Positions 567-50,957 of a stretch of 64,000 nucleotides of DNA are shown here, one piece after another. Made by a program: the position numbers and the translations under genes. The notes under the pieces are model-generated. The model ran no database searches. It saw only the letters and a program-made list of their open reading frames with translations, and had not been told where the DNA came from. This DNA is from a bacterium (GTDB lineage: Bacteria; SZUA-182; DTGQ01; JBLIRR01). The DNA is taken from the NCBI GenBank assembly GCA_049472395.1, contig JBLIRR010000012.1, forward strand, positions 55,777 through 119,776. The letters are read 5' to 3'. Position 1 is the stretch's first letter. The number at the start of each line of letters is the position of its first letter.

Positions 567-1226
567 ATGTGTATGTTTTATAAAAATTCTAAAAAATTAT
601 TTGTAATTATATTTTTTATCGTATGTGCTGTGAGCCTTTCCTTTGCAATTTCTGCTCATGCACAGAATAATTGGACGGCTATGCCTCCCTATAATACGCT
701 GTGGCCCCTATGGTCTCCGGCACTTTCCCCTTATGATGCTGTTACAGGGATACGCACACCAATAGTGACAAGTCTTGAAGCTACTGTTGAACTTCCTGTT
801 GAACCTGCCATAACCTGGGACCCGAGTCTCGCATATCCCTGGCTCTTATATAACACGCCAGTCGGCATGGCTTATTTTGATCCACTCTATGGAATAAATT
901 TTTGGCCTCCTGCATCTTTACTTGATGACGCGGGCCTTCCTCTTCCCCTTGTATTACCTGATTTGTATAGTGCTTTAGCGCCGACAGATACAACGTGGCT
1001 GCAACAGAATGTCCTTTTTGCAAACTCTTATTTTCTCCAGGTATATCCCTCTTTGCTTGCAACTGCAGACCCAGCTGCATTAATAGCCGCTGCAACAATT
1101 CCTCTTCCTCCGGCAATAGTTGCGGCTCTCAACCTTGGATTACCGGTTGTAGGATTAGGAACAACTATTTTCCCTCCTCCTGATATACTCGATTTTCTCA
1201 CTCCTGCTGCCCTGTTAGGATTGTAA
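567..1226 (+). CDS. Secreted Pro/Trp/Tyr-rich protein, paralog of 23289-23912
   Basis: N-terminal signal peptide ending AISAHA; shared motifs PPYNTLWPLWSPALSP and YLLYNTPxGMAYxDPLYGINxWPP; strong RBS. Confidence 0.8.
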   Translation: MCMFYKNSKKLFVIIFFIVCAVSLSFAISAHAQNNWTAMPPYNTLWPLWSPALSPYDAVTGIRTPIVTSLEATVELPVEPAITWDPSLAYPWLLYNTPVGMAYFDPLYGINFWPPASLLDDAGLPLPLVLPDLYSALAPTDTTWLQQNVLFANSYFLQVYPSLLATADPAALIAAATIPLPPAIVAALNLGLPVVGLGTTIFPPPDILDFLTPAALLGL

Positions 1227-23288: not shown

Positions 23289-23912
23289 TCAATAGCCGAG
23301 AATAGCTGCCGGCGTCAATAGGGAGCTGAATGTAGGCGTAGGAGTAATCAGAGAGGCTAACCAGGGTGTCAAACCTGTTAAATTCGGTGGGAGCGCTATG
23401 GTGCTCGCCAGATTAGCATAATTTGGATATTCAGCAATATAGGCTAAGTTAGCAATCGGCACGACATCCTCAATCCACAGAGGATCTGTCGGAAGTAATA
23501 GTGAAAAACCAAGCGGCAGACCAACGGGTATGGGGAGACCGGTTACCGTATCTATCATATAATTTGGCGGCCAAAGATTTATGCCGTAGAGAGGATCGTA
23601 ATAGGCCATTCCAATAGGAGTATTATAGAGTAAATAGGGGTAGCTAAAACTAGGGTTCCACGTTAATCCCGGCTGTACTGGCAGGACAGTTGTAGGATAC
23701 AGGGAATCAACGATTGGAGTGGCTAGTCCTGTCACAGGATCTGGTGGTGAGAGAGCAGGGGACCATAAAGGCCACAAGGTATTATAAGGTGGTAACGGGG
23801 TCCATGTCTGGGCATTGAGGCATGGAGCACACACTAATAACGACAGGACAACAATACTAAAAAGGCATAGAGACATATTTCGTAATAATCTTCGTAGTTT
23901 TTTTGATAACAT
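23289..23912 (-). CDS. Secreted Pro/Trp/Tyr-rich protein, paralog of 567-1226
   Basis: Signal peptide ending CLNAQ; motifs PPYNTLWPLWSPALSP and YLLYNTPIGMAYYDPLYGINLWPP shared with the 567-1226 product; GGGAGG RBS; real start may be the internal MSLCLF. Confidence 0.8.
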   Translation of the reverse strand: MLSKKLRRLLRNMSLCLFSIVVLSLLVCAPCLNAQTWTPLPPYNTLWPLWSPALSPPDPVTGLATPIVDSLYPTTVLPVQPGLTWNPSFSYPYLLYNTPIGMAYYDPLYGINLWPPNYMIDTVTGLPIPVGLPLGFSLLLPTDPLWIEDVVPIANLAYIAEYPNYANLASTIALPPNLTGLTPWLASLITPTPTFSSLLTPAAILGY

Positions 23913-48400: not shown

Positions 48401-50054
48401 GGGAAAATATTCAAAAAACTCGTCAGTGTTCAATGAATTATTAAAGATTCGAGGATTTGATTCAGATGAAAAAATAGACAGATTTTTACATAGTTCTGCA
48501 GGCCATTTGTATTCTCCCTTTTTGTTGAAAGATATTTCGAAAGCTATCGACAGATTATTTTTTGCCCAAAAGAACAATGAATTAGTGATGCTTTATGGCG
48601 ATTATGATGTTGATGGAGTTACCTCTATAGTGCTTTTGGCAAAGCTGCTTCGCTATTTGGAAATCCCCTTTTTTTATTTTCATCCCGATAGATTAACGGA
48701 TGGTTATGGATTTCATAGTCGGGGTGTGAGTATTGCACTATCTCGCGGAGCCAAACTTATTATTACGGCAGATTGTGGTATTTCCGATCATAAAACAGTA
48801 GACTATGCTCAAAGGGTTGGTATTGATGTTATTATTACCGATCATCACTGTCCTGGGGATTCAATTCCTGATGCTTTCGCGGTTATAAATCCGCAAAGGC
48901 GAGATTGTTCATACCCAAACAAGGATCTTGCAGGCGTCGGAGTGGTGTTGAAATTTGTTCAGGGTGTCTTTGAGAAGATGCTGATAGCTCCTTCTCTGGA
49001 GGAATATTTTGAAATAGCCGCTATTGGGACGGTGGCTGATGTTGTCCCCATCATTAATGAGAATAGAACCATCACCAAATTAGGATTGGAAATAATTGGA
49101 TCGCAGCCTATTAATCCAGGCATTAATGCCTTAATAGAAATCGCCGGAATAAAGTCACGAAAGATTAATTGCGGCCATGTAGGATTTCAGATAGGTCCTC
49201 GCTTAAACGCAGCCGGCAGGATTTCCCGGGCAGAACTTGCAACTGAATGTCTCCTTGCTCAAAAGAAAGAGCGGGTCCAGGAACTGGCTTATTATTTGAA
49301 CACAGAGAATATGAAGCGTAAAAAAATTTGTGAGGAAGTGCTGCAGCAAGCACTGGAAAAAATTGAGAGGGATCCACATCTAAGAGAGGGCAAGATTATT
49401 GTATTGTCGGGAGAAGGATGGCATCGGGGAGTTATCGGGATTGTGGCCTCCAAGATCCAATCTATTTATTATAAGCCAATTGTTATAATATCCATTGAAA
49501 AAAATGTAGGACATGGTTCTGCCAGAAGTATCCCTGCTTTTAATATTTTTAATGCACTCCAGAATTTAGATTCGTGGCTCCTGAATTTTGGGGGGCACAG
49601 CCAGGCAGCAGGCATAACAATTGAGACCGATAATATTGAACAATTCAGAGAGAGCATTAACACACTCGCGAATACATCCCTGAGTGAAGATGATATGAAA
49701 GAAAGAGTGGTTGTGGATATGGAAATCGATTGTGGTGCATTTACAGTGGGTACTATTAAGCAGATTGAGCTTATGCAGCCCCATTCAATCGGTAATCCGG
49801 CACCTGTGTTTGCTTCCTTTGGGTGCAAATTGAAATCTTCCCCGCGACGTATAGGGCAACAGGGGGATCATCTGAAATTTCAGGTTTCACACCACGGAAA
49901 GAGCTTTGAATGTGTTTATTGGCAGGCAGGGAATAATCATATAGAAACAAATAAAGGGTACCTCGATATTGCATACACCCCATCTCTCAATGAATGGAAG
50001 GGATACCAAAAGATTCAGTTTGAAATTAAAGATTGCCGGCTATCTAAAAGCTAG
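48378..50054 (+). CDS. recJ: Single-stranded-DNA-specific exonuclease RecJ
   Basis: DHH motifs (LYGDYDVDGVTS, IITDHH) and DHHA1 (GGHSQAAG); start at ATG 48378 with GGGGGAGGA RBS, overlapping the upstream gene's 3' end. Confidence 0.85.
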   Translation: MKKIWEIKGKYSKNSSVFNELLKIRGFDSDEKIDRFLHSSAGHLYSPFLLKDISKAIDRLFFAQKNNELVMLYGDYDVDGVTSIVLLAKLLRYLEIPFFYFHPDRLTDGYGFHSRGVSIALSRGAKLIITADCGISDHKTVDYAQRVGIDVIITDHHCPGDSIPDAFAVINPQRRDCSYPNKDLAGVGVVLKFVQGVFEKMLIAPSLEEYFEIAAIGTVADVVPIINENRTITKLGLEIIGSQPINPGINALIEIAGIKSRKINCGHVGFQIGPRLNAAGRISRAELATECLLAQKKERVQELAYYLNTENMKRKKICEEVLQQALEKIERDPHLREGKIIVLSGEGWHRGVIGIVASKIQSIYYKPIVIISIEKNVGHGSARSIPAFNIFNALQNLDSWLLNFGGHSQAAGITIETDNIEQFRESINTLANTSLSEDDMKERVVVDMEIDCGAFTVGTIKQIELMQPHSIGNPAPVFASFGCKLKSSPRRIGQQGDHLKFQVSHHGKSFECVYWQAGNNHIETNKGYLDIAYTPSLNEWKGYQKIQFEIKDCRLSKS

Positions 50055-50135
50055 GATTGAGGAGCCAGGATTGAAGAGCCAGAATTGAAAGCGAACCAGG
50101 GTTGAGCCTAAACCACTGTGAGCTCAACCCTGGTT
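50053..50135. terminator. Direct repeats plus 14-bp perfect hairpin between convergent genes
   Basis: Three ~14-bp direct repeats (AGGATTGAGGAGCC, AGGATTGAAGAGCC, AGAATTGAAAGC) then inverted repeat AACCAGGGTTGAGC / GCTCAACCCTGGTT with 14-nt loop (50094-50135); weak T-tract. Confidence 0.4.
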
Positions 50136-50142
50136 TCTGAGA

Positions 50143-50577
50143 TCAATAGTAAAGGCCGTAAAGTCCGCCGTAGAGTCCGCCATAATATCCGCCATAGAGT
50201 CCGCCGTAATAACCGCCATAGCCGCCGTAGAGTCCGCCGTAATAACCGCCATAGCCGCCGTAGAGTCCGCCATAATAACCGCCATAACCGCCATAGAGTC
50301 CGCCGTAATAACCGCCATATCCGCCATAACCGCCATAGAGTCCGCCGTAATAACCGCCATAGAGTCCACCGCCGTAAAGTCCATAAAGTCCACTATAGCT
50401 AGAGTAACCCGCGGTTCCATAATAGGGATACCCAAATATGCCTGAATTAGAATAATAGGGGCTTAAATATCCACCATAGCCACCATAGTAGGCATGTGCA
50501 GATTGGATAGTAAAACTCAAAGCCACGATAAATATTAAGAATGATAAAATAATAAGTTTATGAGTCGTTATTTTCAT
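50143..50577 (-). CDS. Secreted Gly-Tyr-rich tandem-repeat protein
   Basis: Start at internal Met with AGAGGA RBS (track ORF runs to 50634); signal peptide ending SAHA; mature part almost entirely YGG / LYGG / YYGG repeats. Confidence 0.7.
   Translation of the reverse strand: MKITTHKLIILSFLIFIVALSFTIQSAHAYYGGYGGYLSPYYSNSGIFGYPYYGTAGYSSYSGLYGLYGGGLYGGYYGGLYGGYGGYGGYYGGLYGGYGGYYGGLYGGYGGYYGGLYGGYGGYYGGLYGGYYGGLYGGLYGLYY
50160..50395. repeat. Short tandem DNA repeats (about 15-30 bp units) encoding the GY repeats
   Basis: Recurring units such as GCCGTAGAGTCCGCCGTAATAACCGCCATA visible directly in the sequence. Confidence 0.8.
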
Positions 50578-50957
50578 TTTTATTTCCTCTCTTATTACTT
50601 TCACAAAATTCTTTAATCTTTTTTTAATCTCCAAAGAATGCTTTGAATTTTATGATTTTAATCCTTCTCCCTCACCTCCTCTTTTTATGATTTTTCTTTT
50701 TCATATATATGCTCTTCTCGCCTTGACATTGGAGCATTTACAAAAAGAGATATCATTGGTTTATGAAAAAGCTATATTTACTCATTATATATTTACTCAT
50801 TATATATTCTATTAAAATATATCCTAAAAGCCTATTTTCTGCAATATATTCTTACAAAATTTTCACTTACGAATGTATCCGGAAAATTGATTTATCTCAG
50901 AGCAATAATAATATAATTATGCAAAATGTATACCAAAAAATGGAGCAGGTGAGAAAT

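Follow-up and report, generated by a model that had tools for sequence, protein, structure and literature searches.

A predicted exported Gly-Tyr-Leu repeat protein of an uncultured bacterial lineage and the multi-copy family of which it is the minimal form

Exported low-complexity proteins rich in glycine and tyrosine are well known as structural materials in eukaryotes, where they occur in plant cell walls, squid ring teeth and cuticles. The class I glycine-rich proteins of plant cell walls consist of a signal peptide followed by (GGX)n repeats; they are extracytoplasmic and structural, and cross-linking through tyrosine has been proposed for them. In the suckerins of squid sucker ring teeth the M2 modules, which are built of GYG, GGY, GGLY and GLGGY (PMC11931252), provide a load-bearing protein network with its amorphous, Tyr-stacking phase. 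Among bacteria, the coat proteins of sulfur globules (Sgps) are the only exported Gly/Tyr-rich low-complexity structural example identified from the literature, and they have been described as keratin-like or plant-cell-wall-like envelope proteins (PMC10386293; PMC7356093). The subject of this article is a gene for a protein of similar composition, located on the minus strand at positions 50143-50577 of a 64-kb stretch of contig JBLIRR010000012.1; this whole stretch is called the window below, and positions without another label are counted from its first nucleotide. We conclude with high confidence, jointly, that this is a real gene, that its product is an exported low-complexity protein, that this protein belongs to a family, and that its repeat is unstable. 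The best explanation of the whole is that the gene encodes an exported, charge-free, disordered Gly/Tyr/Leu chain that forms self-associating structural material, a reading to which we assign a probability of about 0.6.

With suckerin M2 the window protein shares the peptide vocabulary of GGY and GGLY, its unit being GGLY-GGY-GGY-Y. Suckerins, however, are eukaryotic and much larger, and their M2 modules alternate with Ala/His-rich M1 beta-sheet modules flanked by Pro. No such alternation is seen in the mature window protein, which contains one Ala, no His and two Pro, and the likeness is convergent, not homologous. The plant class I proteins resemble it in having a signal peptide directly before a Gly-rich repeat with Tyr at the X position, but they are eukaryotic, not homologous and lower in Tyr, and the window protein has no Pfam match. 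The original prediction had likened the protein to eukaryotic Gly-Tyr structural proteins, and the comparison stands for composition only. Curli CsgA and Pseudomonas FapC are likewise secreted, repeat-built, self-assembling extracellular structural proteins. In contrast to the window protein, they have Gln/Asn/Ser-rich beta-strand repeats and dedicated secretion and nucleator genes, which are absent beside the window gene; its neighbours encode RecJ and histidine kinases. Scans of the window protein against Pfam and NCBIfam gave no match at E <= 10, and a sequence search of the PDB gave none at E <= 1.

The gene runs from an ATG at 50577-50575 to a TGA at 50145-50143, with 144 codons before the stop. 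The elements that make it up are the following.

50143..50577, minus strand: complete coding sequence of the Gly-Tyr-Leu repeat protein precursor, from the open reading frame (ORF) list and the sequence, with frame and start backed by family alignment A2
50491..50577, minus strand: predicted Sec-type signal peptide, residues 1-29, from the sequence, AlphaFold and the family junction
50374..50490, minus strand: less regular Tyr/Gly/Ser-rich N-terminal mature part of about 39 residues (YYGGYGGYLSPYYSNSGIFGYPYYGTAGYSSYSGLYGLY), from the sequence
50146..50373, minus strand: regular array of GGLY, GGY and GGYY, from Tandem Repeats Finder, repeat family D1 and the unit table
50586..50589, minus strand: putative Shine-Dalgarno sequence GAGG, 8 nt 5' of the ATG (AGAGAGGAAATAAAA-ATG), read from the sequence

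The translation is MKITTHKLIILSFLIFIVALSFTIQSAHA|YYGGYGGYLSPYY...GGLYGGYGGYY x3...GGLYGGLYGLYY. Its signal peptide has an n-region MKITTHK with two Lys, a 15-residue h-region LIILSFLIFIVALSF and a c-region TIQSAHA with Ala at -3 and -1, and the predicted cut is AHA|YY; it has no Cys and is thus not that of a lipoprotein, and it has no RR and so is not of the Tat type. An alternative TTG start at 50634 was rejected, since it lacks a Shine-Dalgarno sequence and would place a charged 19-residue extension before an otherwise normal signal peptide; it is also disfavoured because relatives start 4-8 residues ahead of the hydrophobic core. The mature protein, 115 residues and 12.0 kDa, is 43.5% Gly, 34.8% Tyr and 10.4% Leu (89% for the three), the remainder being six Ser, two Pro and one each of Asn, Ile, Phe, Thr and Ala, with no Asp, Glu, Lys, Arg or His. 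In the AlphaFold model the helix of the signal peptide spans residues 5-32 at a per-residue confidence (pLDDT) of 88-96, and the mature part stays below 50 throughout; the latter is predicted to be intrinsically disordered. The signal peptide and the YGG, LYGG and YYGG repeats that the original prediction had described are confirmed in the sequence, and the signal peptide argues for export. Translation of the entire 64 kb in all six frames revealed no further stretch rich in Gly and Tyr, so the array is not a matter of background composition.

Relatives of this protein are difficult to find with conventional searches. A word-indexed search of 5.8 billion proteins with the single sequence returned only two weak matches, P0001 (E = 3e-5) and P0002 (E = 1e-4), and an exhaustive HMMER search with a three-sequence, repeat-only profile returned four among 1.84 billion representatives. 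The matches of both searches have a signal peptide ending in Ala, then a start with Tyr or rich in aromatics, then GLYGG repeats, and P0001 also has YYGGYGGY..SP..GY..PYY in common with the N-terminal mature part of the window protein. Repeat-only queries are nearly blind because the composition correction of HMMER strips away most of their signal, and the window protein offers no globular module on which homology could be anchored. The family came to light when a degenerate DNA pattern for G-L-Y-G-G-[L/Y]-Y-G-G was run against 185,579 species genomes, and then through a profile that includes globular modules. The pattern gave 115 loci, most of them single chance matches, together with a few metagenome-assembled genomes (MAGs) that have many loci and many matches per locus. 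There were six loci in JBLIRT, five in JBFMGO, four in JAILZY, three in JAFGSM (Zodletone spring) and one each in JBLIRN, JBLIRO and JBLIRS.

Sixteen family members cluster by BLAST with low-complexity masking on. In alignment A2, which comprises 16 sequences including the window protein, A30, Y31 and Y32 are invariant or at least 90% conserved. A search with the A2 profile returned at least 207 proteins, all of them called 'hypothetical protein [bacterium]' or without a name, and none with a Pfam domain. The earlier statement that such proteins are uncommon in bacteria holds overall, as the four repeat-only matches indicate, but one lineage contains a family of this size. The common plan is a signal peptide, an A-x-A|YYG junction and a charge-free repeat of the (G)LYGG, LMGG or LYGLYG type, of very variable length, after which there may be nothing, a module A, a module B, or both. 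Module A has the pattern SPFGLQNMYY..TG.GLTYQVPFLQIAPLLGVAGLYN.LFP.LF, also written SPFGLQNMYY..PFLQIAPLLG; module B has the pattern AEQAGTW.G.W...GP.TLNLV.DP... and ends in ..TPVI. Among the best 120 of the relatives, the AYY junction is present in 89, module A in 61 and module B in 44.

The window protein has A-x-A followed by Tyr-Tyr (...SAHA|YYGG) and a long charge-free GLYGG/GGLY/GGY repeat with seven GGLYGG units. Modules A and B are absent from it, and tblastn finds neither anywhere in the window. Judged by its signal peptide and AYYG junction, the type of its repeat and its lineage, it can be assigned to the family, of which it represents the minimal form with only a signal peptide and repeats; the family itself is undescribed, lineage-specific and multi-copy. 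Other repeat-only members are L088 2660-3058 and 4383-4778, L100, L076, L032, P0002 and P0003. Module B (residues 73-189 of P0188; also in L094, L078, L085, L030 and L112) is predicted to form an 8-stranded up-and-down beta-barrel with pLDDT 90-97; it has no Pfam model and resembles avidin, streptavidin and designed ligand-binding barrels (TM about 0.7, target-normalised). In the models the preceding repeat is disordered, and a barrel placed after such a repeat fits a tether or anchor role. The fact that the same repeat carries a beta-barrel or another module in many paralogues suggests that the repeat serves to anchor or tether the proteins in a matrix that they share.

The lineage of the window organism was assessed from RecJ and gene order, as there is no rRNA within the window. 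RecJ is 77% identical to that of JBLIRQ (GCA_049472375.1), 64% to that of an ENA contig and 53% to those of JBFLZW and of JBFMGO, the latter a MAG with at least five family loci, compared with 45% or less for every named phylum. Gene order is also conserved, as six genes of the window lie in synteny on a JBLIRQ contig, with identities of 59-81%. The RecJ identities and the synteny therefore place the window organism in the very deep-branching lineage that shows the expansion of the family. The window segment 50055-56474, which holds the Gly-Tyr gene, two PAS/hybrid histidine kinases and a nitroreductase, corresponds to 290 bp in JBLIRQ (L118 3697-3986), and reflects either an insertion in the window organism or a deletion in JBLIRQ.

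The DNA of the array is a run of near-identical short units, as the original prediction had described. It encodes seven units that begin with GGLYGG, and the core GGLYGGYGGYY (33 nt) occurs three times in a form that is perfect at the protein level, flanked by variants of 8, 14 and 8 residues. For 50185-50328 Tandem Repeats Finder gives a period of 33 nt with 4.4 copies, 93% matches and a score of 246, and it also gives a 66-nt period x2.8 with a score of 256. The longest exact direct repeats in the gene are 44 nt at a spacing of 33 nt and 41 nt at a spacing of 42 nt, and repeats of this length, a substrate for slipped-strand or short-homology recombination, are present at the window locus. 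From them we infer length variation at this locus. Exact-sequence look-ups of the 144-residue form, of a 163-residue form and of the neighbouring kinase gave no record, and the search of 5.8 billion proteins yielded no close allele of the window gene.

Within the family, P0141 and P0144, from separate assemblies, differ by no substitution and one repeat indel of 33 residues, and P0181 and P0162, also from separate assemblies, by no substitution and one repeat indel of 73 residues. At the DNA level the metagenome contigs of P0141 and P0144, L123 and L124 from JGI 3300056619 and 3300056620, show one mismatch in 4,765 bp and a single in-frame indel of 99 bp, which is bounded by the direct repeat GGCTACGGCGGACTCTATGGCGG. 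Family members have repeat regions of between 42 and 391 residues. The paralogue indels support instability of repeat length within the family, in keeping with the slippage that the original prediction had considered likely. Since the units and indels are all multiples of three, the outcome is length variation and not phase variation. Phase-variable contingency loci are similar in having a tandem DNA repeat inside the gene of an exported or surface protein, the length of which changes by slippage or recombination. They differ from the present case, in which a unit of 33 nt and family indels of 99 and 219 nt keep the frame, so that protein length is affected rather than an expression switch.

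A mechanism can be proposed in which Sec export and cleavage at AHA|YY would release a disordered polymer of 115 residues without charge. Its Tyr and Leu residues could serve as 'stickers' and its Gly residues as 'spacers', and the chains would then associate with one another and with paralogues outside the cytoplasm; low-complexity structural proteins that self-associate are built on this plan. Aromatic stacking and backbone hydrogen bonds would hold them together, oxidative dityrosine links also being possible, and in the cell envelope or the extracellular matrix they would build up a layer that is insoluble or gel-like. Paralogues with a beta-barrel or another module would be tethered into this layer, for which the repeat-only proteins would provide the filler. 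Gain or loss of in-frame units between long direct repeats would tune the length of the chain without switching the gene on or off. The structural-matrix function, which is proposed from the anatomy of the protein, is held with moderate confidence. It is tempting to go further and to suggest that the many paralogous, charge-free, low-complexity Gly/Tyr/Leu(Met) proteins of the lineage together make up a material outside the cytoplasm, some as filler and some displayed; this is conceivable, though we consider it rather doubtful. Members with small avidin-like beta-barrels, with the SPFGLQNMYY module or with the PPYNTLWPLWSP domain would then be displayed on the matrix or anchored in it, and the whole would be a counterpart of suckerin or plant glycine-rich networks, or else a periplasmic or extracellular condensate, with a repeat length that is continually re-tuned.

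Several points weigh against a self-associating structural material encoded by a family of this kind. Self-association, location and function of the family members are read from the anatomy of their genes. Homology between low-complexity sequences is hard to tell from convergence, and the paralogue indels were seen in metagenomes assembled from short reads, in which repeats can collapse, and could be artefacts of such collapse. The gene is absent beside recJ in the two closest relatives, JBLIRQ and the organism with the 64% identical RecJ; it is therefore not fixed at this site, where it is dispensable or recently acquired. The neighbourhoods of family genes are heterogeneous (GH65, thermolysin-fn3, TPR-sulfatase, multihaem cytochromes) and give no consistent functional clue. 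Upstream of the window gene, scans for sigma-70 and sigma-54 promoters gave weak matches, no more frequent than expected by chance. The hairpin that follows the gene (50094-50135, see below) has no canonical U-run, and a simple terminator scan reported no terminator because the T-run is missing.

Two further ORFs overlap the gene and bear on whether the Gly-Tyr frame is the one that is used.

50118..50402, plus strand: Arg/His/Asn-rich antisense ORF, a repeat shadow and not a gene
50124..50435, minus strand: second ORF in another frame, which exists as listed

In repeat DNA of this type several frames stay open. This fact, together with the missing gene at the syntenic site in the closest relatives and the lack of an identified promoter, could be taken to mean that there is no functional Gly-Tyr protein and the repeat DNA is non-coding or in decay, or that the antisense Arg-rich ORF is expressed. 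The Shine-Dalgarno sequence, the ATG and a canonical signal peptide, however, occur in the Gly-Tyr frame alone, and the Arg-rich ORF starts with a GTG that lies within a hairpin arm and has no Shine-Dalgarno sequence. The three perfect 11-residue units vary at three nucleotides, each of which is the third base of a codon in the Gly-Tyr frame, so that the differences between units are synonymous only in that frame. In the Arg-rich ORF the same positions are all non-synonymous (R/H, S/N/I), because third positions of the Gly-Tyr frame are the middle bases of its codons. The dismissal of this ORF as spurious in the original prediction is thereby upheld, and it and the ORF at 50124-50435 are shadows of the repeat. 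What is decisive, on comparison of the sequences, is that the relatives elsewhere, at least 207 of them, conserve the Gly-Tyr protein pattern on different DNA; a non-coding or antisense explanation is effectively excluded. The motifs GGY and YGG also resemble those of known eukaryotic glycine-rich antimicrobial peptides. The window protein is small and predicted to be exported, which would suit a secreted bioactive peptide, antimicrobial or signalling, like the YGGYG peptides of nematodes and arthropods. Yet most such peptides are cationic or processed at basic sites and this protein has no cationic residue at all; its 115 residues are long for the class, and no immunity, transporter or processing genes are adjacent. 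The fusion of the same repeat to globular domains in the family is a better fit to a tether or matrix, and a bioactive peptide seems quite improbable.

The most serious rival is the suggestion that the protein is a functional analogue or a very remote relative of the Sgps and forms an exported coat on periplasmic inclusions of elemental sulfur or another material. The Sgps (SgpA/B/C of Allochromatium vinosum; ALG67575.1) are bacterial proteins with no catalytic domain and no Pfam model, and their architecture is alike: a Sec signal peptide and a repetitive, hydrophobic, Gly/Tyr-rich protein of 12-15 kDa, a description that also applies to the window protein. Their mature N-terminus has two aromatics and then Gly directly after an A-x-A site, A-x-A|WWG in the Beggiatoaceae, compared with A-x-A|YYG in the Gly-Tyr family. 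Moreover, the family-bearing MAG JAFGSM comes from Zodletone spring, which is described (PMC8248873) as anoxic and rich in sulfide and sulfur. Comparison was made with three Beggiatoaceae sequences from the supplement of PMC7356093, ALG67575.1 (Beggiatoa leptomitoformis), EIJ43877.1 and OUD13142.1, and no similarity to these was found, with BLASTP E values of 23 or more and negative bit scores with phmmer and with the family profile. These Sgps contain 15-17% Pro and 9-19% Ala (26-34% together), no Leu and 7-11 charges, whereas the window protein has 2% Pro (2 of 115), 1% Ala, 10% Leu and no charge, and it lacks both the regularly spaced prolines of the Sgp repeats and the conserved N-terminal block GPFD.GSGWGDFNMSMGGGGRGY. 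No sox, dsr, sqr or fcc gene was found among the window ORFs of at least 150 residues, 40 of 44 of which were scanned against Pfam (41 with the Gly-Tyr protein), and sets of at least six paralogues per genome with beta-barrel modules are unlike the Sgp sets described so far. We regard an Sgp-like coat as unlikely. Tyr-rich chains might also form a redox matrix that embeds extracellular multihaem cytochromes or relays electrons between them. Large multihaem cytochromes (MtrC/MtrF-like, cytochrome c7, paired CXXCH) do adjoin family genes in L065 (3294-6323) and L054 (66-3533), and the family protein at L054 6128-6883 ends in a CTQCH haem-binding motif, as P0160 does in CTLCH. Such adjacency is nevertheless confined to two of about 21 loci examined and may just reflect the abundance of cytochromes in these genomes, and there is no cytochrome near the window gene, so that we give a redox matrix very little credence. 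One of the multihaem cytochromes next to the family genes of L065 and L054 has a Golvesin_C domain.

With at least 207 proteins, several per genome, the family has the chemistry of the exported Gly/Tyr-rich structural proteins named above, has no Pfam model and is found in one uncultured lineage. If the proteins form a self-associating material, this would represent a novel type of component of the bacterial envelope or matrix, a natural and genetically compact source of suckerin-like polymers, and a clean natural system for the study of length drift in tandem coding repeats. The mature window protein, like the repeat regions across the family, has no Lys or Arg and is for that reason undetectable by trypsin-based proteomics, which may be one reason why the family went unnoticed.

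The remaining features of the locus lie on either side of the gene.

50094..50135, no strand assigned: perfect 14-bp inverted repeat with arms AACCAGGGTTGAGC / GCTCAACCCTGGTT, 100% complementary
50578..50957, minus strand: upstream intergenic region of 380 bp with 26% G+C, defined by composition and presumed to hold the promoter and regulatory sites

The inverted repeat is situated between the convergent recJ and Gly-Tyr genes and begins 8 nt past the stop codon of the latter. It folds at -28.4 kcal/mol (z = -4.8, with none of 200 shuffles equally stable), and is likely to be a transcription-stop hairpin shared by the two genes; its place behind the stop codon counts in favour of the Gly-Tyr frame. 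Just before it, across the stop codon of recJ, there is a 14-nt tandem repeat, AGCCAGGATTGAAG x2.9, at 50049-50089. The upstream intergenic region includes a perfect 15-nt tandem duplication, TATATTTACTCATTA, at 50773-50802, which may be the binding site of a regulator. A sigma-54-like sequence, TGGTATACATTTTGC, at 50921-50935 on the minus strand was not counted as promoter evidence, as such matches occur at chance frequency. Horizontal transfer was rejected as the cause of the peak of 51-54% G+C within the window, whose G+C is 39%, since the GGN codons explain the peak.

Further observations concern the family and its surroundings. The repeat-only proteins end in an aromatic pair: YY in the window protein (50146-50151), WY in L100, YW in L076, LW in L032, WW in both P0002 and P0003, and FF in P0005. 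Within their repeats Trp and Phe are rare or absent, and the pair may be a conserved terminal cap or a sorting signal. Family genes can be clustered in tandem, four of them in L088 2660-5363 and two each in L078 4014-6432 and L054 4309-6883, and the repeat dialects differ between clustered neighbours (LYGLYG, GLYGG, GYGYPSTGYGYSS). In the low-G+C MAGs JBLIRS, JAFGSM and JBLIRO, an acidic globular domain of about 230 residues precedes a C-terminal YYGG/LYGG tail (L083 4165-5172, minus strand; L080 4715-5559, plus strand; L053 3189-4221, plus strand), and the L083 protein has no Pfam match. Unrelated small Gly/Tyr-rich proteins of signal-peptide or lipoprotein type were found in an alphaproteobacterium, a deltaproteobacterium, an Isosphaeraceae MAG, a Rhodanobacter and a Planctomycetaceae MAG (L013, L027, L042, L051 and L075); proteins of this secreted type thus appear sporadically in bacteria of other groups as well. 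Elsewhere in the window, the ORFs at 567-1226 (plus strand) and 23289-23912 (minus strand) encode paralogous signal-peptide proteins with a conserved 'QNW..PPYNTLWPLWSPALSP...' domain that has no Pfam match. Their products are 56-59% identical to the N-termini of P0154 and P0156, in which this domain is fused to two copies of module B of the LYGG family, and the window organism therefore has a part in a wider, lineage-specific modular secretome.

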